A DNA stretch of 52,652 nucleotides, from NCBI GenBank assembly GCA_003559575.1, contig PWKZ01000080.1, forward strand, positions 1-52,652, read 5' to 3'. The notes under the pieces are model-generated. The model had not been told where the DNA came from. It saw only the letters and a list, made by a program, of their open reading frames with translations, and searched no databases. The stretch comes from Bradymonadales bacterium (GTDB lineage: Bacteria > Myxococcota_A > UBA9042 > PWKZ01). This document shows positions 3,152 to 52,652 of the stretch, piece after piece; the stretch's first letter is position 1, and every line of letters starts with the position of its first letter. A program made the translations under genes and the position numbers.

Positions 3152-5551
3152 TTAGGAGCGATTTGTCCGTCGCGCGCGCGCGCCCAGGAGGCGTTCTCGA
3201 ATAATCGTCAAGACCGTTTTTTCTCGATCGAGGATTACGCCCTGCTCGTTGAAGCGCGCCGTGCTCTCCAAAGCGAGGTTGCGCATGATCGCGAACATCT
3301 CTTCGGCCTTGATCCCGGCTTGCAGTAGCCTGTCCTTGCCGACCGCTTGGACCACGCCGGAGACGTGACGGCTCAGCGCGTCGAGGATCTCTTGGAGCTC
3401 CTCCTGGCGGCGTCGGCTATGCTCTCGAGTCTCGTCGAGCTCCCTTACTCTGCGGTCGCTGACTGCCAGCGCCGCCGAGATCGCCTTGTCGTCCTGATCG
3501 GTCGGCTCGCCGTTCAGGTTCGCGACCGCTCGCTCGACCTCGGAGGGCCCGGAGTGTGATTCGTTCGGGGCGCTTTGGAGCTTCTCGTTGTCTGCGCTCA
3601 GCCGTTGGCAAAGCAACTCGAGGCGCGCCACCTCACGTCGCAACCTGGTGATCTCCTCGTTCTCTCGTTGCCCAAGCGCCACTAGCCTGGTGACCGTGAG
3701 GGCGTGGTCCTCACTGTCGGACGAGATCGCCGCATCGGCCTGCCACATTGCCTCTTCCAGTTCTCCTCCGACGTCGAACGCCAGGGCGTCGGCGTGTGTA
3801 GAGTCGGCGATCTCTTCCACGGGAGGGGACGGTCTTCGTTCGGCCAGCGCTCGTTCGAATTGCACGAGCTTTGCGACCGCTTGCGCCTCGCGCTCGGCGG
3901 CGCGCTTTTCTTTGAGCTTGGCAGTCTTGACCGCCTCCATCAGTCGTTTGCGCTCCTCACTCCACGATCTGCTCTCGGCCCGCGTGACCTCCAGCGCCGC
4001 CACCAAGCGAGAGGCTTTTGTCTCGGCGCGCTTGACTTCTTCCGAAGCCGCGGCGAGTTGTTTTGCCAGAAGCTCGTTGCGCTCGTGCTGCTCTCTCGCG
4101 GCGCGCTCGAGCGAGTCACGCTCCGTGTGCAGCCGGGCGCGCTCATGCTTGAGGCGACTCCGCTCCTTTTCCAGTCTGGCGTGTTCGGTTTCGGCCTCGG
4201 CGAGCTTCGCGGCGATCTCTTGCAAGCGGCCATCGAGATCCCCGGAGGTCGCCGCGCGCTCCTCATATTCGCGCTTCAAGGTCGCGAGACGTTCTTCGGT
4301 TGCCGCGAGCTTTGTTGCGAGCGCCGCTTTCTCTTGGCTGAGCGTCTCGAGGGGTTGTTTTTGGGCGTCGAGGCGCCGATCCAGCGCGCGCGTTTCGATG
4401 ATCGCTTGGCGGCGCGCTTCCTCCGCGGCCAGACGTGCCTCTTCTAGTTCCTTGCGTTTACGCTCGGCCTCATCGGCTTCAGCGCGGGCGTTCTCCAATG
4501 CCTCCTCGAGATCGGCGAGCTGGACCGTCAATTGATCACACTCGCTCCAGGCGCGGTCAGCCTCTTCCTGAGCCTCGGCGAGCTTGCTCTCGAGCCCCAC
4601 GAAGGCCTCCGGCGGCAGCTTGGATTCGGATTCGGATTCGGGTTCGGGTTCGGGCTCGGGCTCGGGTTCGTGTTCGGGCTCGGGTTCGGGTTCGGGCTCG
4701 GGTTCGGGCTTGGGCTCGGGTTCGGGCTCGGGCTCGGGCGCCGCGACGGGCTGGGTTTCCAAGGCTTCGGCGGCGTGAAACATCTCTTTGAGGCGAAGTA
4801 GCTCGCGCGACTCGACTTGAAGCTCTGCGACCGCCTTCTTGCGCTCGCCGTCTATCACGATCGCCTTTTCGCGCAACCGCATGAACGCATCCCGCGCCTT
4901 GTCCCGCTGTGCGCGGCAGAGGCTCAACTCTTCCTCTCGGAACACCAGCGCCCGTGCCAGCAGGCGAATGTATGCGTCGGTAGAGAGCGGTTGTTCGGAC
5001 TCGTGGGGTTCGTCCGGTAACGGCGGCGGAGTCACTTTGACGCTCCTCTTGCGAGTCGCTTCCGGCATTTCTCGGGGCTTGCGGCGAGCGTGTGGATGGG
5101 CCTTTGCGATCTCCGGCGATTGAAACTCCGCCGGGTCTAACGGCCGCGAGCCGGGCTGCAAAAGCGCCGGGTCGCCAAGCAGCGCATGGACGGCGCTCAA
5201 GCGCTCGATGGTCTCTTTGAAGACTTGCTCTTCGCCTCGCAGCGGCAGTAGTCGGCAGTCGTCGATCAGATCGTTGTCAGTCGCCTTTTGGGCCTCGGAC
5301 GGTGAGGCGCACAACGCGAGACAAGGGATCCCGGCCAGGCGCTTCTGTTTCTTTGTCGCGCGGAGGACCTGGTTGATGCGCGCGATGGTCTCCTCGCAGA
5401 TCACGACGACTCGAGGGATCTCGGCGTCAAGCGCCGCCGGCAGCTCTGTCACACCTGCGACGCGGCGGCAACCCCACCCGATTTTTTTTAGCTGCCCTGC
5501 CACCTGCGCGCTGAGTGCCGCTTCAGAGCTGATGATGATAGCCGAGTCCAT
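3152..5551 (-). CDS. FrzS/AglZ-like protein: N-terminal pseudo-receiver domain, (PE)n linker and long coiled coil
   Basis: The N-terminal 120 aa or so have a response-regulator-like alternating pattern (AIIISSE...VVVICEE...IPCLALC), but the phospho-acceptor Asp position reads C/E. The rest is E/A/R/L-rich heptad-like sequence. An internal PEPEPEPEPKPEPEPEPEPEPEHEPEPEPEPEPESESES tract is present. The track start at 5572 is TTG, so I prefer the ATG at 5551 (MDSAIII). Confidence 0.65.
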   Translation of the reverse strand: MDSAIIISSEAALSAQVAGQLKKIGWGCRRVAGVTELPAALDAEIPRVVVICEETIARINQVLRATKKQKRLAGIPCLALCASPSEAQKATDNDLIDDCRLLPLRGEEQVFKETIERLSAVHALLGDPALLQPGSRPLDPAEFQSPEIAKAHPHARRKPREMPEATRKRSVKVTPPPLPDEPHESEQPLSTDAYIRLLARALVFREEELSLCRAQRDKARDAFMRLREKAIVIDGERKKAVAELQVESRELLRLKEMFHAAEALETQPVAAPEPEPEPEPKPEPEPEPEPEPEHEPEPEPEPEPESESESKLPPEAFVGLESKLAEAQEEADRAWSECDQLTVQLADLEEALENARAEADEAERKRKELEEARLAAEEARRQAIIETRALDRRLDAQKQPLETLSQEKAALATKLAATEERLATLKREYEERAATSGDLDGRLQEIAAKLAEAETEHARLEKERSRLKHERARLHTERDSLERAAREQHERNELLAKQLAAASEEVKRAETKASRLVAALEVTRAESRSWSEERKRLMEAVKTAKLKEKRAAEREAQAVAKLVQFERALAERRPSPPVEEIADSTHADALAFDVGGELEEAMWQADAAISSDSEDHALTVTRLVALGQRENEEITRLRREVARLELLCQRLSADNEKLQSAPNESHSGPSEVERAVANLNGEPTDQDDKAISAALAVSDRRVRELDETREHSRRRQEELQEILDALSRHVSGVVQAVGKDRLLQAGIKAEEMFAIMRNLALESTARFNEQGVILDREKTVLTIIRERLLGARARRTNRS
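4622..4735. repeat. Tandem hexanucleotide array (about 19 units of GGNTTC/GGGCTC) encoding the (Pro-Glu)n tract
   Basis: Read directly: ggattc x3, gggttc, gggctc and variants in an uninterrupted run inside CDS 3152-5551. The minus-strand translation is PEPEPE... Confidence 0.9.
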
Positions 5552-5651
5552 CCCCCAAAAATCCTTCTTCAAGGTGCCGGTGAGAGCTCTGGTGCCGTCA
5601 CCGTTTGCGCCTCCATGTTAGCCTCGCTCGCGCTGTATGCGCCAGTTTCAA

Positions 5652-7310: not shown

Positions 7311-7384
<74 letters not shown>

Positions 7385-7386
7385 CA

Positions 7387-26850: not shown

Positions 26851-26949
26851 CCATAATCGTCGGCCCATCCTGGTATTCGCGCGCGTATTCACGCCCATAA
26901 TTGTGCCCGAATCGCTTCCCGAATCCCGGAAAAGGGTGGATGATTGAGG
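26851..26949. repeat. Composite half-element (copy F): inverted subfamily-1 arm joined to a subfamily-2 arm, core hairpin missing
   Basis: 26851-26895 is the reverse complement of the subfamily-1 right arm (CCATAATCGTCGGCCCATCCTGGTATTCGCGCGCG.ATTCACGC). 26896-26949 matches the subfamily-2 right arm (..GTGCCCGAATCGCTTCCCGAATCCCGGAAAAGGGTGGATGATTGAGG). Confidence 0.8.
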
Positions 26950-30497: not shown

Positions 30498-30719
30498 GGT
30501 TTCACCCAATTCCAATGAGATGGTTAGCAGACTTTTTTACGGTTCGCGTCTCTAATCCGCCATTGCGCCGGCGGACTGCCCCGAGCATGCACCCGTGTAC
30601 GCCCCAAAACAAAGACCTCCAAACTCTAACAATCCCATCCGTGAGCCGCAACGGGTTGCGACGCGACTCTGAGGATCATAGCATCTGGAGGGGTGCGCAA
30701 ACGGGCCAGGAGGATCTTC

Positions 30720-33700
30720 ATGGCTGCCAGAACTTTTTCCTTTGCTTCAACCTTGGTGCTTGTGTCTCTCTCAGTCTCTTTCGCCGGATGCGGCTCTGAG
30801 ATAAGCGATCCTCGGTCCTCCGATGTCCTCTCGCCGGACACGGCGGGGGTGAGCGACATGTTTCCGAGCATTCCCGATCTGGGCCCCGGCACGCCGGATG
30901 ATATTGCGCACAAGGAGATCCTCGTGCCCGACGCACCGGCGCCTGAAGACGTTGTCGACGAGAGCGACCTCGTCCTCCCTCCTCCGGCGTGTCTCGACGA
31001 TTACGAATGCGATGACGGCGACTATTGTACCTTCGGCTACTGCGATGACGAGGGGGTCTGTCAATATGAACCCAAGGAGGGGTTTTGCCACATCGACGGC
31101 GAGTGCTACGAGGCCGGCGAGACCGATCCCGACAACCCGTGTCGCGCCTGCCTGCCGCTTTCCGCCGGCGACGAGTGGACCCCTGATGACACTTTGGACT
31201 GCGCCGAGGACGATCTGTGCGCCACCTGGTCGTGCCGCGACGGCGAGTGTGTCGCGCACCCGATTCTTCACTGCGAAGACAATAACCCTTGCACGACGGC
31301 GTACTGCGACGGTGATGTCGGCTGCGTCTTCGAGCCGCGCGAGGGGGCGTGCGACAATGGCGATCCCTGCACGATCGGCGACTACTGTGAAGGCGGGGAT
31401 TGCGTCGCGGGCCCCGACCGGCTGGTCTGCGACAATGGCGACCCCTGTACCGTCGACACCTGCGAGCCCGGGCGCGGCTGTGTTCACGAGCCCCGCGATG
31501 GGCCGTGCGATGACGGCGACGCCTGCACCGTGGACACCCACTGCGTCGACGGGCAATGTCTCGGCACCCCCAAGGAGTGCGACGACGGCGATCCCTGCAC
31601 CGACGCGTGGTGCGATCCGGTACACGGCTGCCTCTACCGCGACAACGAAGCGCCGTGCGACGACGGCGATCCCTGTACGGTGGGTGATCGCTGTGTCGGT
31701 CGGGTTTGTGTCGGCGGCCCCGACACGCTCGTCTGCGACGACGGCAACCCTTGCACCGACGGTCATTGCGTCCCTTACGAGGGGTGCGTCTATACCGACA
31801 ACGACGATCCATGCGACGACGGCGACGCCTGTACGACGGGCGGCGTCTGTATGGGCGGCGAGTGCGTCGCCACCGGCGAGGTGGACTGCGACGACGGCAA
31901 CCCCTGCACCGCCAACGGCTGCGATCCCGACTTCGGCTGCTTCGAAGAGCCGCTCACCGGCCCGGAGTGCGATGACGGGCTGGTTTGCACGGTGGACGAC
32001 ACCTGCATCGACGGCGTTTGTCAGGGGACACCGAAGGACTGCGATGACGGCAACGACTGTACTCTCGACCGCTGCATCGAGCCGCACGGCTGCCGCAACG
32101 ACTTGATCGACAGCTCCGAGTGCGCGCTCGGGATCGTGATCACCGAGCCCGCGCGGGGAGTCACCCTGGACCATGGAGCGCTCGAAGAGGGGCTCGTCCC
32201 GGTGCGCGGCTACGTGGTGTCGCCGGCCGATCCCGCGCCGGCGCTGACGCTCGACGGCGCGCCGCTCGCGCTCGTGCCGCTCCCGAGCGAAGAGGCCGAT
32301 CCGGACCGCCCCAACCCCGACCAACCGCACCGGTTCGCTTTCGAGACGGCAGTGGTCCCCGAGCACGCCATGAACATGCTGCGGCTCAAGGCCACCGACT
32401 CGTTCGAGCAGGAAGCGAAGCGGGTCCAGTCGTTCTACTACTCGACCGTCTACTACCCCATGACCGAAGACGACTTCGATGCGACCAAGGTGCCGGCCGG
32501 CGTCGCGATTGGGCTGTCGCAGGAGTTCATGGACGATCCCGACGCGACCAGTCTGGCCTCGCTGGTGGATTTGATCTTCGGCAACCTCGACATCATGGAC
32601 TTCATTGACAACCCGGTGGCGAGGGTCGACGAGCTGGGGTGCAGGTACGATCTCAACATCACCAGCGCCTCGTTCAGCGGGACGAGCACCACTATTCGCA
32701 TCACCGACGACGGGCTGGCGCTGAATCTGACCTTGTCCGACCTCGACATCCGCTTCCGCCTGAGACGCACCAGTGGCGGGTTCTGGTGCCCCGGCAGTCA
32801 AAACGGTAGAATCACCGCCGACAGCGCTCGAATCGAGACCCGGGTCCGCGTCACGGTGGTGGACGGCGCCCTCAGTGTCACTCTCGACGAGGACGCCACC
32901 CAGGCCTCTTTCTCCAACTTCGACGTGTCGGTCGACGCCTGGTTCGACTTCCTGGTCGGCTGGTTCCGGGGCATGATCCAGGACACGCTCGAGGAGGCGC
33001 TCGAGGACATCATCAGCGATCAGGTCGGCCCGCTGCTGGCCACCGTGTTCGACGCCCTGTTGCTGGAGCTCGACATCGAGATCCCGCCGCTCATGCCGGG
33101 CGCCGATCCGGCGATGGTGGCCTTCCGTACCCGCATCTCGGACGCTCTCTTCGCCGCCGACGAATACATGCACCTCGAGATGGACGCCGCGGTGCTGACG
33201 GCGCGCGGGGTGCCCTATGAGAGGCTCGGCTCGCTCGGCTACGCCAACTGCCTCGAGTCCCCCTTCGGGCGCAACGCGGTCGATTTCACCCCCTACGAGC
33301 CCCTCAACGTGGGTTTGTTCGACGACGTCGCCAACCAGATCCTCCACGCCGCCTGGCGCACGGGCGCCTTCGAGCTCAATCTCGGCTCCGACGTGATCCC
33401 GGTGGACGAGCTCGAGCAGTTCGGCGTCAGCGAGTTGGATCTCGAGATTTCACTGCTGCTGCCGCCGGTGCTCACGAGCTGCAAGGACCTCCCGGCGCAT
33501 GAGGAAAACCCTGACGCGATCCTGCTCGAACTAGGTGACCTCGAGGTGCGTGCGGAGTTGGTGCTCAACGGCGTGCCGGTGGAGCTATTGATGTACACGA
33601 GCGCCGCCGGTACGGCGACGCTCGGGATCTTGGAGGACGAGGAAGAGGGCAGCAGCGGCGTCGGGATCCAGCTTTTGGGCTTTGATCGAGTGGAGACCGA

Positions 33701-33962
33701 TCTGGTGGAGGTCGTCTCACCCGATCCCGCCGTGGGCGCGATGGTCGGGGTGCTCATCGAGCAAGCGTTGCTGCCGATCCTTCTCGACGAGTTCGCCATG
33801 GATGAGCCCATCGGGTTCGAGCTGCCGGTAATCGATCTCAGCAACCCGGAGGCCGGTATTCCGGAGGGGACGGCGCTCGTGATCGAGCTCACCGAGGTGC
33901 TCCGCAGCGCCGACGCCAACACCATCATGAAGGGCCGCGCCAACCAGATCGCCGCGCCCTGA
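30720..33962 (+). CDS. Giant lipoprotein with about 12 myxobacterial-type cysteine-rich repeats and a large C-terminal domain
   Basis: ATG at 30720 is preceded by AGGAGG. Signal and lipobox LVLVSLSVSFAGC. Twelve C(D/E)(D/N)G(D/N)xCT modules occur at a period of about 26 aa. The C-terminal domain is about 600 aa and Cys-poor. Confidence 0.8.
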   Translation: MAARTFSFASTLVLVSLSVSFAGCGSEISDPRSSDVLSPDTAGVSDMFPSIPDLGPGTPDDIAHKEILVPDAPAPEDVVDESDLVLPPPACLDDYECDDGDYCTFGYCDDEGVCQYEPKEGFCHIDGECYEAGETDPDNPCRACLPLSAGDEWTPDDTLDCAEDDLCATWSCRDGECVAHPILHCEDNNPCTTAYCDGDVGCVFEPREGACDNGDPCTIGDYCEGGDCVAGPDRLVCDNGDPCTVDTCEPGRGCVHEPRDGPCDDGDACTVDTHCVDGQCLGTPKECDDGDPCTDAWCDPVHGCLYRDNEAPCDDGDPCTVGDRCVGRVCVGGPDTLVCDDGNPCTDGHCVPYEGCVYTDNDDPCDDGDACTTGGVCMGGECVATGEVDCDDGNPCTANGCDPDFGCFEEPLTGPECDDGLVCTVDDTCIDGVCQGTPKDCDDGNDCTLDRCIEPHGCRNDLIDSSECALGIVITEPARGVTLDHGALEEGLVPVRGYVVSPADPAPALTLDGAPLALVPLPSEEADPDRPNPDQPHRFAFETAVVPEHAMNMLRLKATDSFEQEAKRVQSFYYSTVYYPMTEDDFDATKVPAGVAIGLSQEFMDDPDATSLASLVDLIFGNLDIMDFIDNPVARVDELGCRYDLNITSASFSGTSTTIRITDDGLALNLTLSDLDIRFRLRRTSGGFWCPGSQNGRITADSARIETRVRVTVVDGALSVTLDEDATQASFSNFDVSVDAWFDFLVGWFRGMIQDTLEEALEDIISDQVGPLLATVFDALLLELDIEIPPLMPGADPAMVAFRTRISDALFAADEYMHLEMDAAVLTARGVPYERLGSLGYANCLESPFGRNAVDFTPYEPLNVGLFDDVANQILHAAWRTGAFELNLGSDVIPVDELEQFGVSELDLEISLLLPPVLTSCKDLPAHEENPDAILLELGDLEVRAELVLNGVPVELLMYTSAAGTATLGILEDEEEGSSGVGIQLLGFDRVETDLVEVVSPDPAVGAMVGVLIEQALLPILLDEFAMDEPIGFELPVIDLSNPEAGIPEGTALVIELTEVLRSADANTIMKGRANQIAAP
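30990..32123 (+). repeat. Intragenic array of about 78-bp periodic Cys-rich modules (TGCGACGACGGCGAYCCCTGCAC...)
   Basis: Recurrent DNA motif tgcgacgacggc(g/a)a(t/c)ccctg(c/t)ac encoding CDDG(D/N)PCT. Coordinates derived from residues 100-477 of the track ORF. Confidence 0.8.
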
Positions 33963-33979
33963 GGTTCGAGGAGACGACC

Positions 33980-36115
33980 ATGCGACGCGCCCAATGCGGC
34001 CATCCTCAAAAAGTTTTGTTTCGGTGGATCCCCGTGGTGCTGTTGGTAACGGCCTGCGCGACGGGTGTCGACGACCAGGCGCTCGAGGGCGACGCGGTGG
34101 GCCGCGACGTTACCGTGGGGCTGCCCGATACCGTCGACGAACCGGGAAGCGACATCTCCAAGCCGGACGTGGACTTTCGCGAGGAAGTGGTCGACCGGCC
34201 GGACGTGGATGAGGGTGAGGTGAAGCCTCCCTCGCTCGCTTGCGACGACGGCGATCCTTGTACCTATGGCGATCGGATGGTGGACGGTGTCTGCGTGGGG
34301 ACGCCGTACACATGCGATGACGGCAAGGATTGCACCGCGAATGTTTGCGACGGGCTCGGCGGCTGCAAGTATAATCTCAAGGACGGCTACTGTCTCGTGC
34401 GGGGCGTGTGCGCCGAGGACGGCGAGTCGCCCGCCTGGGCGCCGTGCCTCGTTTGCGACGTCTCAGCGGCCACCGACGAGTGGACCGAGCGCGACGGCGA
34501 GTGCGACGACGGCGATCCGTGCACCGCCAACAATCTCTGCGAGGCGGGGGTCTGCGTCGGCGAGCCCGTGGTCTGCGACGACGGCAACCCTTGCACCACC
34601 GGCTGGTGCGATCCCGCTGAGGGCTGCGTCTTCACCCCCAACGCGCTCTCGTGCGACGATGGCGACGCCTGCACCGTCGGCGACTACTGCCACGACGGGG
34701 AGTGCCGGTCGGGGGCCGCGCGCCTCGACTGCGACGACGGCAACCCCTGCACCTCGAACGACTGCGATCCCGCAATGGGCTGTCTTGCAACCGACCTGCC
34801 CGACGGCGACGAGTGTGACGACGGCGACGCCTGCACGGTCGGCGCGTTTTGTCTGGACGGTATCTGCCAGGGGGCGCTCACCAAAAATTGCGACGACGGC
34901 AACTCGTGCACCTTCAACTGGTGCGATCCGATAAGCGGCTGCCAGGCGGAGTTGGATGTGGACAACCCTTGCTGTACTTCCGGCACCAACCCCTGCGACG
35001 ACGGCAACCCCTGCACCTTGAACGAGTGCAACCTGGAGGATGGTTCCTGCGAGGACATCCCGCTCGACGGCGAGCCGTGCGACGACGGCAACATTTGCAC
35101 CGCCACCGGGATCTGCGACGACGACGTCTGCGTTCCCGGGCCGGAGGTCGATTGCGACGACGGCAACCCCTGCACCTTCAACTGGTGCGATCCCGACCGC
35201 GGCTGCCGCAGTGAGCCGCTCGACCCCGGCAGTCCCTGCGAGCACCCCGACGAGTGTGTCGTGGACGCCGCCTGCGTGGACGGCGCCTGTGTCGGGGAGC
35301 GGCTCTCGTGCGTCGAGTGCCCGCCGCCGTTCTACAACCCGCTCAACATCGCGACCTCACTGGCGATAGGGACCGACGGGCACCCGGGCAGCGGACTTGA
35401 TGTGGACGGTGATCCCGACACCTGTGCCCCGGCGGCCAATTGCAGCGCCGGCGTCGACAACCAGTTCGCCCAGTCTCTAGGGATCCTCAACTCATTCATC
35501 GATGTGAACCAGACCCTGAGTGAGGCGGTCGCCGACGGGGACGTCAACATCTTGTTCGAGCACCGCGCGCCGGTGTTCGACGGCGGCGCCTACGAGCTGG
35601 CGGTGGTCATCGGTGAGCGGGCGCAGCCCGCCTGTGACCCTCTGGTCGAGCTGTGCCCCTACCTGGTGCTCGACGGGAGCTTTGTGGACGATCCTCCCTG
35701 CGAGGCGCTCATCAGGTTCGGCGACACCCGAATCGAGGACGGGGTGTTGACGGCGGGGGGGCCCGGATCGCGGTTTGGCATCTCGTTGCCGTTCATGGAG
35801 GGGGTCATGCTCGAGTTGACTCTCTACAACGCGCGCCTCGAGGCTCAGGTGACTGAGGAGGACGGCGCCGTGGTCGCCATGGCGCAAGGGCTAATCGGGG
35901 GCGCCATCCGCCGGCAGGACGTCGTCGATCTGGTCAACGCCCTACCGGACGAGGTGTTTGAAGACCTGCCGGTCACCCGCGAGTTGATAGTCGGGCTGCT
36001 GCCCTCGGTCTTCGTGACCGACATCGACACCACCGGCGACGGTGACCCCGACGCCACCTCGATCGGCCTCGAGTTCGAGGCGCGCGCCGCCCAAGTCACC
36101 GGCGTGGCGCCGTAG
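33980..36115 (+). CDS. Second cysteine-rich-repeat lipoprotein (paralogous N-terminal architecture, different C-terminal domain)
   Basis: ATG is preceded by GAGGAG, 17 nt after the upstream stop. Signal and lipobox IPVVLLVTAC. About 11 CDDG(D/N)xCT modules. Shares with the upstream protein the segment G.C...GE....PC..C.....DEWT. The C-terminal domain of about 265 aa is distinct. Confidence 0.8.
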   Translation: MRRAQCGHPQKVLFRWIPVVLLVTACATGVDDQALEGDAVGRDVTVGLPDTVDEPGSDISKPDVDFREEVVDRPDVDEGEVKPPSLACDDGDPCTYGDRMVDGVCVGTPYTCDDGKDCTANVCDGLGGCKYNLKDGYCLVRGVCAEDGESPAWAPCLVCDVSAATDEWTERDGECDDGDPCTANNLCEAGVCVGEPVVCDDGNPCTTGWCDPAEGCVFTPNALSCDDGDACTVGDYCHDGECRSGAARLDCDDGNPCTSNDCDPAMGCLATDLPDGDECDDGDACTVGAFCLDGICQGALTKNCDDGNSCTFNWCDPISGCQAELDVDNPCCTSGTNPCDDGNPCTLNECNLEDGSCEDIPLDGEPCDDGNICTATGICDDDVCVPGPEVDCDDGNPCTFNWCDPDRGCRSEPLDPGSPCEHPDECVVDAACVDGACVGERLSCVECPPPFYNPLNIATSLAIGTDGHPGSGLDVDGDPDTCAPAANCSAGVDNQFAQSLGILNSFIDVNQTLSEAVADGDVNILFEHRAPVFDGGAYELAVVIGERAQPACDPLVELCPYLVLDGSFVDDPPCEALIRFGDTRIEDGVLTAGGPGSRFGISLPFMEGVMLELTLYNARLEAQVTEEDGAVVAMAQGLIGGAIRRQDVVDLVNALPDEVFEDLPVTRELIVGLLPSVFVTDIDTTGDGDPDATSIGLEFEARAAQVTGVAP
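34241..35317 (+). repeat. Intragenic array of Cys-rich modules in the second lipoprotein gene
   Basis: Same tgcgacgacggcaacccctgcac-type motif recurring about 11 times. Coordinates derived from residues 88-446. Confidence 0.8.
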
Positions 36116-40112: not shown

Positions 40113-41219
40113 CTACACGATGGGGCTTGGGCGCGCCAAATAGGCTTCGAGATCCTCATCGGTCGCGTTCAGCGCGAGCCCGAAGCGAGGATCGGCCATG
40201 TTCCGCTGGAGGGCTTCTAGAAGATTGCGGGTGATGGGCCCCACCAGCCCATCTCCCACCGGCACCCCCTTGACCCCGATGACAGGCATCAAGCCGGCGC
40301 CGGTGCCGGTCAAAAACACTTCACGCTCCGCGCCCACCATGTCGATCGGCAGCATGTCGGGCACTTCTTCCACGCGGTAGCCCGCCCGGCGGGCCTCCAT
40401 CATTACTATATTGCGCGTAATTCCCACGAGACAGTACTCGGGGCTAGGGGTCTTGAGCGTCACCTGTGACGGGTCCTCGAGCCAGCCGGGCAGCCGCTCG
40501 ATGACGAAGATATTGTCGGCCGATGCCTCGGCCACCGCGCCGCCGGGAGTCAACATCAACGTCTCGAGCCTCTCCTGATCCTTGGTCTCGATGAGCGCGA
40601 AAATATTGTTGAGGTAGTTGTTGCTCTTGATGTTGGGGTCCACGAACTGCCGAGTGGCTCGCCGCGCGTTGCGCGCGATGCTGATTTCAATCCCGACCTC
40701 GTACTTCTCCGGGGGGTAGAGGCGGATGGTCGAGGCGATGCAGTAGAATGTCGGCGCGACGCACTTGCTCGGATGAATCCCGAGGTTGCCGAACCCGCGG
40801 GTCAGCACGGGGCGCAGATACCCCTTCTCCTCCTGCGAGAAGCCGACCGCCTGAACGGTGCGCAGAATGAACCGCGCGAGAGTCGCCATGTCGTAGGGGA
40901 TCCGGATCATCATCCGCTCGGCCGAGACGTACAGCCGCTCCAGGTGCTCCTTGAGTGTGAAGATCCGGCCGTTTATCACCAATATGCCCTCGAACACGGC
41001 GTCGCCATACAGGCCGCCGTGGTCGAGGGGCGAGAGCGGCGCTTCGTCCATTCTGAAAATGCCGTGTCGCCGCGGCACGCACTCGCCGCAATCAACGGCC
41101 TCGACCCGCTCTAGGTCGCCAAAAATGCGAGGTGTCAGGCCTTCGATATAGGGCATGCTGACAAAGACTCGGGCTTTCTCACTGATCTGTCGAAGCTCGG
41201 TTACGACGGGGTGCAACAT
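40113..41219 (-). CDS. Class IV (branched-chain/D-amino-acid) aminotransferase family protein
   Basis: ATG at 41219 is preceded by AAGGAG at ideal spacing (the track start at 41225 is GTG). GLYGDAVFEGILVINGRIFTLKEHLERLYVSA, YLRPVLTRG, ADNIFVIE, GITRN and EVFLTGTGAGLMPV match fold-type IV PLP enzymes. Confidence 0.82.
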   Translation of the reverse strand: MLHPVVTELRQISEKARVFVSMPYIEGLTPRIFGDLERVEAVDCGECVPRRHGIFRMDEAPLSPLDHGGLYGDAVFEGILVINGRIFTLKEHLERLYVSAERMMIRIPYDMATLARFILRTVQAVGFSQEEKGYLRPVLTRGFGNLGIHPSKCVAPTFYCIASTIRLYPPEKYEVGIEISIARNARRATRQFVDPNIKSNNYLNNIFALIETKDQERLETLMLTPGGAVAEASADNIFVIERLPGWLEDPSQVTLKTPSPEYCLVGITRNIVMMEARRAGYRVEEVPDMLPIDMVGAEREVFLTGTGAGLMPVIGVKGVPVGDGLVGPITRNLLEALQRNMADPRFGLALNATDEDLEAYLARPSPIV

Positions 41220-41344
41220 ATTCACTCTCCTTCGTCACTCGGCGCGGTTCGGCAAAGGCCGGGTAGCGAAACTTACTAACGGTCGCCCCACGGGTCAAGG
41301 CAGAGCGGCGAGACCTGCGATTGCTTCGATTTTTGGCTCTCGAT

Positions 41345-41522
41345 CCTCAATCCTCCACTCTGTCCGAGGACCGAGGGGAGTGAGGCGGGTGCAAGTGCAA
41401 GGAAACAAGCCAAATCGAGCGGAGGCGTAGCGGCGCTACGTCGAGCATCGATTTGGTGAAGGTGACGCAGCAGATGTGCCCGGATCGCTTCCCGAATCCC
41501 GGAAAAGGGTGGAGGATTGAGG
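41345..41522 (+). repeat. Palindromic intergenic repeat, subfamily 2, copy E (full length, 178 bp)
   Basis: Termini are CCTCAATCCTCCAC (41345-41358) and GTGGAGGATTGAGG (41509-41522). Core is TGCAAGGAAACAAGCC, inner stem CCAAATCGA/TCGATTTGG, apex GTAGC-GGC-GCTAC. Confidence 0.9.
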
Positions 41523-41627
41523 TGATGCCGGCGGTTGACGCGACTGCGCGGAGCGGGGATCATGCGGCTTGCGAATTGGCGCCTACCCGGCGCGGCGCAT
41601 TCATTCCACCCTCGAGGAGATGTCCCC

Positions 41628-43733
41628 ATGATCCGAAAGATATGGTTGCCCCAGCTCTCGGCGCTTGCTTTGCTGCTCGTCGCCGGCGCCTTCTCCCCGG
41701 TTGCCGCCGGCGATGGACATCCGTTCTCAGTCCACGACATGCTCGCCATGGAGCGCATCTCGGATCCGCGGGTTTCGCCCGACGGGAGCCTGGTGGCGTT
41801 CACGGTTCGCGCGACCGATCTCGAGGCCAACGCGGGGCGCTTCAATATCTATGTTGCGGGCCTCGACGGCCGGGAGGCCAGGCAGCTGACCTCCAACCCG
41901 GCCGCCGACCACAGCGCACGCTTCGCCCCGGACGGGCGCTCGCTGTACTTCTTGTCCGACCGCGGCGGATCCACTCAGGTCTGGCGAATCTCCCTCGAAG
42001 CAGCGGGTGGCGAAGCGACGCAGGTGACCGACCTGCCGCTTGATTTGGAGCATATGATGGTCAGCCCCGATGGCTCCAAGTTGGTGGTCTCCGCGCGAGT
42101 GTTTGCCGACTGCGATTCGCTCGCTTGCACGGCCGCGCGCCTCGCCGAACGCGCGGCGCAGAGCGCCAGCGGGCGCATCTATGAGCGTCTCTTCATCCGT
42201 CACTGGGATGAGTGGAAAGATGGTCGCCGCCGCCAACTCCTGGCGCTGTCGCTGGCGGAGGACGTGCTGGCGGGGGAACGCGCCGTGACGGCCTCGGAGG
42301 CGGTGTTGTTGATGAGCGGGATGGACGCCGACAGCCCCTATATTCCCTGGGGTAGCACGAGTGATCTGGCCTTCACCCCGGATGGCGCGGGGCTCGTGTT
42401 CGCGGCGCGTGACGTGGGCCGCGAAGAGGCCTGGTCGACCAACTTCGACCTGTTTCTGGTGCCGCTCGACGCGAGCAGTCCGCCGCGCAACTTGACCGCC
42501 GATAACCCGGCTTGGGATAAGGCGCCGGTGTTTTCGCCGGACGGCACTCGCCTGGCCTATCTGGCGATGGCGCGCCCCGGCTACGAATCCGACCGCTTGC
42601 GGGTGGTGGTCATGGACTGGCCGTCGGGTGAGCGAAGAACGCTCACCGAGGATTGGGAGCTGAGCCCCGGCAGCATCGCCTGGGCGCCCGACGGCCGGCG
42701 TCTCTACGCCACTGCGTTCAACCGCGGCCAGGTGAGCATTTTTTCGGTTGACGCGCGTCCCGGCCGGACTGCCGGTGAGGTCAAGTTGCTGATCGATCAG
42801 GGAACCAACAGGTCAGTGCGGCCGCATAAGGGGGGGATCCTGTTTACCCGCGACACCCTGGCCGGTCCGGTGGAGCTGTGGACCGCCGACGCCGAGGGGC
42901 GCCGCGAGCGCCGGGTGACCAATTTGAACACCGCCCGGATGGACGCTGTGCGCACCGGGGAGTTCGAGCAGTTCACCTTCGAGGGCGCCGGCGGAAACGA
43001 GGTCTGGGGCTACCTGGTCAAGCCGGTGGATTTCGATCCCGCGCGGCGCTACCCGGTGGCGTTTCTGATCCACGGCGGGCCCCAGGGCTCCTTCGGCAAC
43101 CACTTTCACTATCGCTGGAATCCGCAGGCCTACGCCGGGGCCGGTTACGCGGCGGTGATGATCGACTTTCACGGCTCGGTGGGCTACGGGCAAGAGTTCG
43201 TCGATGCGATTCGTGGGGACTGGGGAGGGGCGCCCTACCGCGATCTGAAGAAGGGGCTCGACGCCGCGCTCGAACGCTACCCGTTCCTGGATGGTGACCG
43301 GGTGGCGGCGCTCGGCGCTTCCTACGGTGGATACATGATCTTCTGGATCGCGGGACAGACCGACCGCTTCCGCTGCTTGGTCGCCCACAACGGCATCATC
43401 GACACTCGGATGGCCTACTTCGACACCGAAGAGCTGTGGTTCCCCGAGTGGGAGCACGAAGGGACCCCGTGGGAAAACCCCGAGGGCTACAGCCGCCACA
43501 ACCCCGTGCTGCACGTGCAGAACTGGACGACTCCGACTCTCGTGGTGCATAGCGCGCACGACTACCGAGTGGCCTTGACCCAGGGGATTGGAGCTTTCAA
43601 TGCGCTCCAACGGCTCGGCGTACCCTCCAGGTTTCTCTACTTCCCCGATGAGAATCATTGGGTGCTGAAACCCGCCAACAGCATCCTCTGGCATGAGACG
43701 GTGCTCGATTGGCTGGATCGCTTTACCGACTGA
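41628..43733 (+). CDS. Secreted S9-family serine peptidase (acylaminoacyl-/dipeptidyl-peptidase type: beta-propeller plus alpha/beta-hydrolase)
   Basis: ATG at 41628 is preceded by GAGGAG. Signal MIRKIWLPQLSALALLLVAGAFSPVAAG. PD40-like FAPDGRSLYFLSDRGGSTQVW. Catalytic blocks HGGPQG, GASYGGYM (GxSxGG), HSAHDYRV and DENHWV. Confidence 0.85.
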   Translation: MIRKIWLPQLSALALLLVAGAFSPVAAGDGHPFSVHDMLAMERISDPRVSPDGSLVAFTVRATDLEANAGRFNIYVAGLDGREARQLTSNPAADHSARFAPDGRSLYFLSDRGGSTQVWRISLEAAGGEATQVTDLPLDLEHMMVSPDGSKLVVSARVFADCDSLACTAARLAERAAQSASGRIYERLFIRHWDEWKDGRRRQLLALSLAEDVLAGERAVTASEAVLLMSGMDADSPYIPWGSTSDLAFTPDGAGLVFAARDVGREEAWSTNFDLFLVPLDASSPPRNLTADNPAWDKAPVFSPDGTRLAYLAMARPGYESDRLRVVVMDWPSGERRTLTEDWELSPGSIAWAPDGRRLYATAFNRGQVSIFSVDARPGRTAGEVKLLIDQGTNRSVRPHKGGILFTRDTLAGPVELWTADAEGRRERRVTNLNTARMDAVRTGEFEQFTFEGAGGNEVWGYLVKPVDFDPARRYPVAFLIHGGPQGSFGNHFHYRWNPQAYAGAGYAAVMIDFHGSVGYGQEFVDAIRGDWGGAPYRDLKKGLDAALERYPFLDGDRVAALGASYGGYMIFWIAGQTDRFRCLVAHNGIIDTRMAYFDTEELWFPEWEHEGTPWENPEGYSRHNPVLHVQNWTTPTLVVHSAHDYRVALTQGIGAFNALQRLGVPSRFLYFPDENHWVLKPANSILWHETVLDWLDRFTD

Positions 43734-47359: not shown

Positions 47360-47902
47360 GTGACTGCCCGCAAGACTTATTATGGAGTGCGCGTCTCCAA
47401 AGAGTATTTGAACTTCGGCGCGGCTCACTTCCTGCTATTCGCCGACGGCAGCCGCGAGGCGTTGCACGGCCACAACTACCGGGTCGCGGTGACCCTTCAA
47501 GGGGCGCTCGACCAGGGCGGTGTGGTGGTGGATTTCCTGGTGCTCAAGCCGCTCGTCAAGGCGATCTGTGAGCGGCTCGATCACCGCACGTTGCTGCCCG
47601 GGGCGAGCTCCGCGGTCCAGATAGTGGAACGAGACGGTGAAGTCGAGGTCCGCCATCGCCGGCAACGTTTCGTCTTCCCCAGCAGCGACGCGCTAGTGCT
47701 GCCGCTCGAGAACATCTCGGCCGAACACCTCGCCCGATACATCGCCGATCATCTGCTTCGGGCGCTCAGCGAACATTGCTCGGGCGCGCGGCTGGAGATG
47801 ATTGAGGTCGAAGTGGAGGAGACCCCGGGTCAGGTGGCGTTCGTGCGGCGCCACGATTTTGATCCGGCGCCATGTCCGCGCAAAGGGGGAGGGGCACAGT
47901 GA
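47360..47902 (+). CDS. queD: 6-carboxytetrahydropterin / 6-pyruvoyl-tetrahydropterin synthase family protein (QueD-like)
   Basis: GTG start preceded by GGGAGG. AAHFLLF....EALHGHNYRVAVTLQG.....GVVVDFLVLKPLVKAICERLDHRTLLP is the PTPS/QueD signature. No other queuosine genes are in the window, so the symbol is tentative. Confidence 0.75.
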   Translation: MTARKTYYGVRVSKEYLNFGAAHFLLFADGSREALHGHNYRVAVTLQGALDQGGVVVDFLVLKPLVKAICERLDHRTLLPGASSAVQIVERDGEVEVRHRRQRFVFPSSDALVLPLENISAEHLARYIADHLLRALSEHCSGARLEMIEVEVEETPGQVAFVRRHDFDPAPCPRKGGGAQ

Positions 47903-47904
47903 TG

Positions 47905-48082
47905 CCGGTAATCGCCGGTTCGTTCTGAGGAGCGAGCGAGTGGAGGCGCGTTCATGTGCAAGGAAACAAGCCGAATTAGGCGCAGTCGTAGCAGCGCTAC
48001 GGCGAGCGCTAATTCGGTGCAGGTGACGCCGCAGATGTGCGTGAATCCGTCCGCGAATCCCTGGATGGGCCGGCGATTATGG
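47905..48082 (+). repeat. Palindromic intergenic repeat, subfamily 1, copy B (full length, 178 bp)
   Basis: Left terminus CCGGTAATCGCCGG (47905-47918) and right terminus CCGGCGATTATGG (48070-48082). The interior is nearly identical to copies A and C. Confidence 0.9.
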
Positions 48083-50089
48083 ACGACGGCACGCGCCTGG
48101 GGGCTCGTGGTTCTCCTGGCCTCTTGGGGGCTGTATCTCGTGACGTTGGCCCCGGGGGTGTTTTGGCTCGACAGCGGCGAGCTGGTGGCGTCCGCCCACA
48201 CCCTCGGGATCCCGCATCCGCCGGGCCATCCGGTTTATCTCATTCTGGCCAAGTTGGCCTCGCTGGTGCCCATCGCGAGCGTGCCCGTTCGGGTGGGGCT
48301 GCTATCGGCAGTGTTCGGCAGCGCAGTCGCGCTCTTGCTCTACGCGCTCGTGTTGTGGGTTTGGCGCGGGCGCGATGACTCTTGCGATCTCCTGCTGGCG
48401 CCGTCGGCAGCGTTGGGGGCGCTGGTGTTCACCGCCAGCCCGGCGCTGTGGTTCCAATCCATTCGGAGCGAGGTCTATACCCTCAACCTGGCGCTGATTT
48501 TGATTCCAACGCTCCTCTTGGTGCGGCTCCACGGCGCGACACCGGCGCCCGCGGCCTGCAAAAAACGCAATGGACAAGCTCTTGGTGCCGGAAATGTGGC
48601 CGTTGCCGTGTTTCTGGTGGGCCTTGGGCTCGGCAATCATCATTTGTTGGTCCTGCTGAGTCTCCCGGCGCTGGCGTGGCTGGCGCTCTCGCTCCCCTCC
48701 TTCAGGGCACGCCTGACCCTCGGGAGGTTCGCGCTGCTGTTCATGGTAGGGGTCGTGGCGCTCGCGCCTTATGCCGTCCTGCCTTTGCGCGCGCGCCTCC
48801 TGCCGGCGATGCACTGGGGTGACGCGAGTACTTTGGCAGGGTTCTTCGATCTGGTCAGCGCGCGGGTCTTCCACGGCGCCGTCGACCCGGCCACGCGCGC
48901 CTCGCTGGGGGCCAATCTGCTGGTGGCGCTGGAATTGTTCATGCGGCAGTTGACGGCCCCGGTTGTTCTGGCGGGGGTGGTGGGGTTGGTGTTGCTGGCG
49001 CGCCGCCGGCCTCTGCCGGCTGTGGGGTTGTTGCTGCTCCTGTTCGGCAGCTTGCTCTCCAAAGTGATGATGTTTTTGGATCCCGACAATCCAGACGATC
49101 ACGGCTATTTCTCGGCGGCGCTGGGGATGTTGGCGCTCGCCGCCGCCGTCGCCGTCGGCGCGGCGGCCGCTGCGCTGGCCCGGCGGTGGCCGGCGGCGAA
49201 GGGCGCCTTGGCGTTGGGCTGCGGCGCTTTGGCCCTCGGAGCGATGACAGTTCAGGTGACGAGAAATGTCGAGTCAAGCTCGTTGATGCGGTTTCGATCT
49301 CCCGACGTGGTGCTCGACGCGACGCTCGAGGGTGTCCCGCCGCGGACCGTGCTGATGCCCTATTATTACGCGCTGCATTTCACTTTGCAGTACGCTCAAC
49401 TGGTCGAAGAGCGGCGCCCCGACGTGGCGCTCGTCCACCAGACATTCATGGCCCATATCGACGGGGGGGAACCCTACCTGCGCCGGCTCGAGACGGCCCA
49501 TCCACGCCTAGGTAATCTGGCCGAGGCGTTTCGCCGCGAAGCCGCTGTGCCCACGAAGGCGGTGTTGGCGCAATCCAAGGAGCGGCCCGTCTACCTGGAG
49601 CCGTTTCGCGAGCGGGTCGTGCCGGCCGAAAACTTGGAGCCCCTCGGGATGCTGGCGCGCGTCCGGTTCGATCCGGCCGCGCTGCCCCAGGCCGGCAGCG
49701 AGGCCGAACGTGCCCAAAGCGCTTGGCGTGTGGCTTACTGGACCGAACTCGAGCGGCGCCTGGGGCACGAGCGGGTCCGTTACCCACACACCGGCGCGTT
49801 ACTGCTGTGGTACACCTATTTGGAGGCTCATCTGTTGTATGAGCGCGGCGAATATGAGGCCGCGCGGGAGGCGGTTCGGCGAGGGCTCTCGTGGCACCCC
49901 GACTCGCCGCGGCTCCGGCGACTGGAGACTCGACTCTTGACGACCGAGGGCCGCGCTTGTATCGAGGGGGGGGCGAGAGGTGAGCCTCTCGTCCGCTCCT
50001 TTGTCGATGCCGCAGCCGTTCATGGGAAAGCGAAGCTCGCATGGCCGATCCGACGACTGACAAGCAAACCGCCGAACCGCCCCTCGTGA
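48065..50089 (+). CDS. DUF2723 (TMEM260-type GT-C) polytopic membrane protein with a C-terminal TPR-like region
   Basis: LAPGVFWLDSGELVASAHTLGIPHPPGHPVYLIL is the hallmark DUF2723 N-terminal loop. At least 10 TM segments. C-terminal YERGEYEAAREAVRRGLSWHP is TPR-like. The track start at 47954 lies in the repeat, so I place the start at ATG 48065 (MGRRLWTTARAWGLVVLL), which is itself inside the repeat terminus. Confidence 0.75.
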   Translation: MGRRLWTTARAWGLVVLLASWGLYLVTLAPGVFWLDSGELVASAHTLGIPHPPGHPVYLILAKLASLVPIASVPVRVGLLSAVFGSAVALLLYALVLWVWRGRDDSCDLLLAPSAALGALVFTASPALWFQSIRSEVYTLNLALILIPTLLLVRLHGATPAPAACKKRNGQALGAGNVAVAVFLVGLGLGNHHLLVLLSLPALAWLALSLPSFRARLTLGRFALLFMVGVVALAPYAVLPLRARLLPAMHWGDASTLAGFFDLVSARVFHGAVDPATRASLGANLLVALELFMRQLTAPVVLAGVVGLVLLARRRPLPAVGLLLLLFGSLLSKVMMFLDPDNPDDHGYFSAALGMLALAAAVAVGAAAAALARRWPAAKGALALGCGALALGAMTVQVTRNVESSSLMRFRSPDVVLDATLEGVPPRTVLMPYYYALHFTLQYAQLVEERRPDVALVHQTFMAHIDGGEPYLRRLETAHPRLGNLAEAFRREAAVPTKAVLAQSKERPVYLEPFRERVVPAENLEPLGMLARVRFDPAALPQAGSEAERAQSAWRVAYWTELERRLGHERVRYPHTGALLLWYTYLEAHLLYERGEYEAAREAVRRGLSWHPDSPRLRRLETRLLTTEGRACIEGGARGEPLVRSFVDAAAVHGKAKLAWPIRRLTSKPPNRPS

Positions 50090-52531: not shown

Positions 52532-52652
52532 CCATAATCGTCGGTTCGTTCTGAGGAGCGAGCGTGTGGAGGCGCGTGCATGTGCAAGGAAGCAAGCCGA
52601 ATTAGGCGGAGGCGTAGCAGCGCTACGTCGAGCACTAATTCGGTGCAGGTGA
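52532..52652 (+). repeat. Palindromic intergenic repeat, subfamily 1, copy C (right part cut by window edge)
   Basis: Starts with CCATAATCGTCGG 19 nt after the GT39 stop and continues TTCGTTCTGAGGAGCGAGCG.GTGGAGGCGCGT.CATGTGCAAGGAA.CAAGCCGAATTAGG..., as in copy B. Confidence 0.88.

Follow-up and report, generated by a model that had tools for sequence, protein, structure and literature searches.

Why should the two arms of a short intergenic repeat change together while its loop segments stay the same? This question is raised by a 178-nt unit at positions 41345-41522 (+) of the window, i.e. the whole stretch of 52,652 nucleotides that was analysed. The original prediction distinguished two subfamilies of this repeat, differing by compensatory changes in both stems, and proposed that a folded single-stranded form, either an ssDNA hairpin or an RNA, is under selection. 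It carried one caveat, namely that terminal inverted repeats bound by a protein, or conversion from arm to arm, can keep arms complementary as well. We describe here the copies of the repeat, their fold, their relatives and their insertion sites, and weigh the explanations that these data allow.

Results

Copies of the repeat in the window

The 52.6-kb window contains five core-containing copies and two fragments of a repeat of about 177 nt. All copies are intergenic, lie among housekeeping genes and are spaced 4-20 kb apart. The core pattern gave four matches in the window and none in shuffled sequence. Copy D, the flagged element, is a full 178-nt unit (41345-41522, +) placed between two divergent genes, one for an aminotransferase IV (40113-41225, −) and one for a peptidase S9 (~41629-43733, +). 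Copy E (22459-22635, −; 177 nt) belongs to subfamily 2 like copy D and is antisense to both of its neighbour genes. Subfamily 1 comprises copy B (47905-48082, +), with an altered left tip CCGGTAATCG, as well as copies A (1-135, +) and C (52532-52652, +), which are cut by the start and by the end of the window, respectively. Fragment F (26851-26949) joins a subfamily-1 right arm, in reverse-complemented form, to a subfamily-2 right arm; both arms are cut at an equivalent position, and the core is missing. Fragment G (7387-~7455, −) is a decayed subfamily-1 copy, preserved from the right arm through CTGCGGCGT, that starts one base past the 3' end of tRNA-Ala(CGC) (7312-7385). Further isolated termini were not detected in the window, nor was a gene flanked by such termini in the sequences examined.

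Pfam annotation assigned the 30 window ORFs to ordinary chromosomal genes. None of these 30 ORFs encodes a transposase, a recombinase or a reverse transcriptase, and no gene for the Y1 transposase RAYT is among them. The small related contigs described below did not yield a transposase either.

Some features of the neighbouring genes deserve mention in their own right. The longest ORF of a TMEM260-like glycosyltransferase gene (47954-50089) begins at an ATG that copy B carries in its conserved core; past the element, a GTG at 48107 offers the first start in frame. The ATG at the terminus of copy B was considered as a start codon for the downstream gene and discarded, being out of frame on direct reading. 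Two ORFs of 1089 and 711 aa (30693-36115) carry 14-17 copies of a cysteine-rich CDDGNPCT-type repeat; such repeats are characteristic of proteins secreted by myxobacteria and point to Myxococcota. At 4602-4763, consecutive TCGGGT/TCGGGC hexamers form a low-complexity tract in the ORF 3152-5572 (−), whose protein product has no Pfam match.

Subfamilies and conserved segments

All sequences quoted in the original prediction were recovered at their places, and the division of window copies A-E into two subfamilies is real. In subfamily 2 (D, E) the termini read CCTCAATC(C/A)TCCAC / GTGGAGGATTGAGG and the inner stem CCAAATCGA / TCGATTTGG; in subfamily 1 (A, B, C) the corresponding sequences are CCATAATCGTCGG / CCGACGATTATGG and CCGAATTAG / CTAATTCGG. 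The matched CGCCGG and CCGGCG of copy B are present as described. Identity amounts to 91-98% within a subfamily and to 71-75% between subfamilies, the termini differing at 6 of 13-14 positions. One copy on an 8.6-kb contig from the same organism (L128, see below) has a right terminus of a third type, GGTGGGGAATTAGGG. The segments TGCAAGGAAACAAGCC, GTAGC-NGC-GCTAC and GGTGACGC(N)GCA, said to be almost invariant, are indeed kept in all copies, with the exception of a single A>G in TGCAAGGAAACAAGCC of copy C and of one mismatch in the GTAGC segment of copy E.

In copy D, the left terminus CCTCAATCCTCCAC (41345-41358, +) pairs with the right terminus GTGGAGGATTGAGG (41509-41522, +), forming helix 1. 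The 5' side of the central internal loop, TGCAAGGAAACAAGCC (41396-41411, +), is invariant or nearly so in 12 copies, in L128a and in the divergent relative L002; on the 3' side, the conserved segment is GGTGACGCAGCA (41461-41472, +). The left arm of the inner stem, CCAAATCGA (41410-41418, +), pairs with TCGATTTGG at 41448-41456. The apical hairpin GTAGC-GGC-GCTAC (41427-41439, +) shows a G-C to A-U compensation in the relative L136. The right arm carries two direct GAATC-type motifs (GGATC ... CGAATCC; 41482-41499, +), 12 nt apart and in nearly invariant columns, the A residues of which are situated in small conserved internal loops. This motif is also present in L002.

Fold and covariation

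The compensatory change ascribed to the two stems was confirmed and proved to be wider than claimed, since pairing extends from the first base to the last. The whole unit is a single imperfect palindrome that folds into a rod-like hairpin of 70 pairs. This rod was derived from minimum-energy folds of the full-length copies and scored on an alignment of 12 copies, in which 94.4% of cells were paired, versus 30-38% when the partner was slid by 1-3 columns. With RNA parameters, the folding energy of copy D was −108.6 kcal/mol (z = −11), and those of the other full copies ranged from −89 to −105 kcal/mol. Twenty-three pairs of the 12-copy alignment had changed on both sides. In four of five measures none of 500 shuffles attained the observed values; the fifth, the occurrence of further pair types, was attained by 31 of the 500.

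Comparison of the subfamily consensuses gave a similar picture. Among the 70 pairs, 47 were unchanged, 18 doubly compensated, 3 turned into wobble pairs by a one-sided change and 2 broken. Altogether, 69 of 70 pairs were kept between subfamilies, as compared to a mean of 42.7 and a maximum of 53 in 5000 runs of a random-substitution null. Columns that differ between subfamilies made up 41 of 140 paired and 4 of 37 unpaired ones (Fisher p = 0.02), the unpaired loop columns thus changing at about a third of the rate of stem columns. In the inner stem, 4 of 12 pairs were doubly compensated between subfamilies, with more changes in L002 and in the sister genome L129. The terminal helix contains five compensated pairs, which indicates that the folded molecule includes both extreme ends. 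At one pair, most subfamily-1 copies have U-A, copy L128b has U·G and copy B has C-G, a series that reads as a stepwise path via a sense-strand wobble. The 50-nt left and right arms of copies D and L119 did not fold better than shuffled sequences when taken alone (z −1.5 to +1.1).

A pattern of this kind might be mimicked by only two clonal lineages. For the outer arms this objection holds in part, both arms being visible in two subfamilies only. It is countered by the 18 separate double substitutions, by the third arm type and by the compensated inner stems in L002, L129 and L136. Copies L120a (positions 336-513 of contig L120) and L128a (positions 1-140 of L128) differ in their outer arms but have the inner-stem variant GCCGTTCTTAGGC in common, by which a small internal loop is opened. 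This common lesion suggests either an exchange of segments between copies or a stem tolerant of damage.

Strand asymmetry

Mechanisms acting on duplex DNA are blind to the strand, so that G·T and A·C oppositions should occur alike. This was clearly not the case. On the sense strand, all copies together contain 76 G·U cells versus 6 A·C cells, four of the latter in the decayed copy L120a; counted by columns, G·U occurs in 18 and A·C in 5. The share of G·U is about 14% of pairs. The symmetric internal loops contain G·A and G·G oppositions and not hidden A·C. Folding of both strands, as the original prediction had suggested, showed the sense strand to be more stable than its complement by 25-35 kcal/mol in every full copy with RNA parameters, and by about 10 kcal/mol with DNA parameters.

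The caveat concerning protein-bound terminal inverted repeats or arm-to-arm conversion is largely set aside by this asymmetry. Moreover, wobble pairs and asymmetric loops are common to both subfamilies, which implies that each arm was inherited as a sequence of its own and that neither was copied from the other. Strand asymmetry, compensation and loop conservation support the proposal that a folded single-stranded form, be it an ssDNA hairpin or an RNA, is under selection.

Relatives and dispersal

Eight further copies or remnants were identified in soda-lake metagenome contigs and Myxococcota MAGs. A scan of a genome collection gave at least three loci and under-samples the taxonomic spread; among the matches listed were L003, a subfamily-2 copy at a contig end, and L002, a divergent copy in an Anaeromyxobacteraceae MAG. 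A metagenome scan gave four loci, the soda-lake sediment contigs L119-L122, whose flanks are unrelated. L003 and L119-L122 stem from Kulunda and Cock Soda Lake sediment data. The ribosomal protein S1 gene that lies beside two of the copies from the metagenome scan gave access to the 8.6-kb contig L128, from the same organism as the window, which carries three copies.

With a covariance model built on the core, weak, decayed relatives were found in sister lineages. In L129 the inner stem of 16 bp is compensated throughout and the loop blocks are shared with the other copies, L136 has the G-C to A-U exchange in the apical hairpin, and L127 is a weaker match to the model. In L123, a decayed copy from a sister lineage, a left terminus of the subfamily-2 type and the 5' loop are kept. 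Directly after this copy, at 4215-4400 of L123, there is a tandem repeat of about 62 nt (GGCTCATCCCCGGAGTCGGGCCCCTGTGGCGGGCTC...) in 3-4 copies.

About one copy is present in every 3-10 kb. The window and the contigs L003, L120, L121 and L128 terminate within repeat copies, as is usual where assemblies break at a high-copy repeat, and this implies a high genomic copy number. With decayed relatives in sister lineages and near-identical copies within each subfamily, the family is old in the clade and has recently expanded in the organism of the window.

Searches for known families were negative within their respective scopes. The Rfam scan of the window at gathering thresholds returned only a tRNA, and a permissive scan of copies D and B gave only spurious matches (E 2.6-9.5). 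BLAST with the element did not detect a match in plasmids or phages. The 115 viral-contig matches to a 15-mer did not extend past the seed in BLAST and were treated as chance.

Insertion sites and flanks

Comparison of filled and empty sites showed that the repeat inserts. In L002, a clean insertion of about 143 nt, consisting of core and right arm, lies between purA and a response-regulator gene. Three relatives of L002 (PurA identity 79-85%) have the same gene order without the element, with spacers of 53-124 nt. A conserved single-copy RNA gene in Anaeromyxobacteraceae, which L002 might have represented, was rejected on the grounds that these three syntenic relatives lack it. Between the HIT and TPR genes, L128 carries a copy where the sister genome L129 has a spacer of 4 nt, the sequences being too diverged to place the exact junction.

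Insertion did not generate a regular target duplication: among the seven copies with both flanks, a direct repeat was seen in one (L119, GGTTG). The flanks are unrelated between copies, and no shared motif was detected in the left flanks. The 17-mer GCACAGCGATGCCGGTA abuts copy E at 22636-22652 (+), and it recurs, with a T for the Y, at 47894-47910, where it abuts copy B. The exact 17-mer common to the flanks of E and B is GCACAGYGATGCCGGTA, and its last 9 nt, TGATGCCGG, abut copy D at 41523-41531. At copy B it overlaps the PTPS stop codon and looks preceded by a decayed subfamily-2 right arm. This 17-mer could be a target motif or a remnant of an older repeat. GGYTTG-like motifs occur in either orientation in the flanks of several copies. 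In L121 (123-138), the subfamily-2 right terminus GGATTGAGG runs straight into ATTATGG, the 7 nt with which the subfamily-1 terminus ends, an arrangement that suggests a nested or adjacent insertion. Together with fragment F, these flanks may hint, in a small sample, at a target preference or at insertion beside older copies.

We also considered whether truncations always keep the 3' end, as a signature of retrotransposition. This was rejected, given that L123 has only the left arm and that fragment G is the decayed remainder of a fuller copy. Truncated copies keep either end, the right one in L002 and F, the left one in L123.

Discussion

Our data are best accounted for by a non-autonomous mobile repeat that spreads via a folded single-stranded intermediate, probably ssDNA, recognised in trans. 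We assign this reading a probability of about one half. The rod formed by the sense strand combines a terminal helix with two small internal loops rich in G and A, a large central internal loop of conserved sequence, in which AAGGAAACAA stands opposite GNAGGTGACGC, an inner stem and the apical GTAGC hairpin. Propagation would require the fold of the sense strand. The stems would only need to pair and could thus drift by compensatory change, giving rise to subfamilies, and the loops would be kept in sequence if they are read by a trans-acting factor. The folded molecule would likely be ssDNA, for example on the lagging-strand template at the replication fork. An enzyme that recognises hairpins, possibly of HUH/Y1 or similar type and encoded elsewhere in the genome, would cut and re-join this molecule. 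Since the copies are young (91-98% identical), their structure should reflect that of their source copies, and selection would have acted on spread, that is on transposition competence, rather than on a function at each locus.

Some observations are difficult to accommodate in this reading of a mobile repeat. Neither the window nor the small related contigs yielded a transposase, and the reading assigns no role to the flanking 17-mer. The lesion common to L120a and L128a may mean that the inner stem is not essential or that segments were exchanged. Conserved loops combined with variable termini are furthermore the reverse of what is seen in REPINs and MITEs.

The nature of the folded molecule is where the main rival reading departs from ours. 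It would be an RNA, either a transcribed structured RNA serving as a protein-binding or processing element or a template for RT-dependent copying, comparable to a bacterial SINE. The G·U share with nearly no A·C is more typical of structured RNA, as are the possible tandem G·A loops, and both count against ssDNA. The conserved asymmetric internal loop is likewise typical of RNA-protein sites, and the strong fold of copy D with RNA parameters as well as the compensatory path via a U·G intermediate point in the same direction. We nevertheless favour ssDNA and regard RNA as possible but doubtful. The repeated unit starts and ends exactly at the first and last base pair, and neither an internal sigma-70 promoter nor an intrinsic terminator was found in or at copy D, so that a unit-length RNA would need precise processing. 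The five compensated pairs of the terminal helix, which place both extreme ends in the folded molecule, also favour ssDNA. Orientation relative to neighbour genes is mixed, with about 5 sense and 4 antisense copies. Rfam offered no family even at E = 10, the window ORFs do not include a reverse transcriptase, and truncations keeping either end do not follow a 3'-anchored pattern. On contigs with a clear GC skew, the sense strand is on the G-rich strand, i.e. the lagging-strand template, in 7 of 10 copies, a ratio of 7 to 3 that is not significant.

An ordinary MITE would be moved as duplex DNA by a DDE transposase binding the termini of 13-14 bp, the remaining complementarity coming from homogenisation of the palindrome. 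Inverted termini, a length below 200 bp, non-coding sequence and intergenic position are all in line with this idea; GGTTG does flank L119 on both sides, and subfamily-specific termini could match two related transposases. We consider it unlikely in view of the single target duplication among seven copies, of the excess of G·U over A·C, which is not expected of duplex mechanisms, and of the wobble pairs and asymmetric loops inherited across subfamilies, which show that the arms were not homogenised. The internal loops are also more conserved than the termini, and the sequences examined do not contain a gene-flanking element with these termini. Selection at each locus, finally, would apply if the host had adopted the repeat as a cis element acting in ssDNA or cruciforms, such as a priming or promoter-like site or a nucleoid-protein array. 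The repeat resembles ssoA-type origins (PMC5703833) in size, in strand specificity and in combining conserved loops with variable stems, and the two GAATC motifs are one helical turn apart. Young copies at non-orthologous sites, absent from the same sites in relatives, speak against such a role, and the decayed copies common in sister lineages fit a selfish burst and decay better. We judge this the least probable of the readings discussed.

There is one more speculative option, about as improbable as a MITE. The replicator may be a conserved folded core of about 80 nt with exchangeable outer arms, recognised by a class of enzymes that has so far not been linked to small repeats. This might be a reverse transcriptase acting on a processed rod-shaped RNA, again bacterial SINE-like, or a new hairpin-specific ssDNA recombinase. 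If true, this would explain the fixed loops alongside subfamily-specific termini and stems, as well as the occurrence of the core with different arms in L128a, L120a and L002.

The repeat family is previously undescribed and comes from an uncultured soda-lake myxobacterium lineage; such repeats are not known to have been described before in Myxococcota or in soda-lake sediment. It is a clean and statistically strong case of a genomic repeat in which evolution is constrained by one strand's fold and not by its sequence. Fixed loops with drifting stems and termini invert the pattern of REPINs and MITEs and point to a recognition centred on the internal loops. In practice, short-read assemblies break at the repeat, and gene callers may be misled into placing start codons inside it.

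Comparison with known systems

REPINs are built from a pair of inverted REP units, themselves imperfect palindromes of about 20-35 nt, have highly conserved ends and a variable spacer, and are mobilised by the Y1 (HUH) protein RAYT / TnpA-REP. The present repeat resembles them in being non-coding, intergenic and high-copy, in forming a hairpin over the whole unit in ssDNA or RNA, in the absence of a target duplication and in depending, as proposed here, on an enzyme encoded elsewhere. Compensatory changes on both hairpin sides, common in REPINs (PMC3116915), are shared as well. Several differences are, however, apparent. The arms alone do not fold and contain no REP-like sub-palindromes, the ends vary between subfamilies with the centre as the conserved part, the unit is about twice as long as a typical REPIN, and a RAYT was not found in the window.

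Dispersed intergenic repeats of 100-200 bp with terminal inverted repeats, a long imperfect palindrome and subfamilies are also known as bacterial MITEs. Correia/NEMIS in Neisseria, ERIC/IRU in enterobacteria, RUP, Nezha and Chunjie have regular target duplications, usually of TA, and termini as their best conserved part; their transcripts can fold. Our repeat shares terminal inverted repeats of 13-14 bp with these elements and differs from them by the lack of a fixed-length target duplication and by pairing over the whole unit with strong strand asymmetry. A parent IS with the same termini was not present in the window, and plasmids and phages gave no match.

With the ends of IS200/IS605 elements and of their miniature derivatives, the repeat has in common strand-specific imperfect ssDNA hairpins, the absence of target duplication and the link to the lagging-strand template. 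Those elements, however, have two distinct subterminal hairpins without inverted termini and integrate on the 3' side of a fixed tetra- or pentanucleotide. The LE/RE architecture with which the original prediction had proposed a comparison was not recovered here, where one end pairs with the other and no common motif occurs in the left flanks. Two other systems were considered and rejected. Integron attC sites carry R''/R' boxes (RYYYAAC ... GTTRRRY) and form a cassette array; the termini here read CCATAATCG.../...CGATTATGG and CCTCAATCC.../...GGATTGAGG, and the copies are not in an array. A retron msr/msd is at odds with the multi-copy nature of the element and with the lack of an RT gene beside any copy. 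Readings of the loops as a K-turn, a CsrA site or a Shine-Dalgarno sequence were weighed as well; the loop sequences do not match the canonical K-turn layout.

The closest conservation pattern is found in the ssoA-type origins, ssDNA folds of about 160 nt that work in one orientation only and contain a conserved unpaired RSB block (PMC5703833). They share with our repeat a strand-specific fold of the ssDNA type, conserved unpaired blocks and stems conserved in structure. They differ in being single-copy and located on plasmids beside rep and dso, whereas the present element is a multi-copy chromosomal repeat without sequence similarity to plasmids or phages. All in all, we class the element with the small non-autonomous hairpin repeats, a broadly known class, and do not assign it to any named family.
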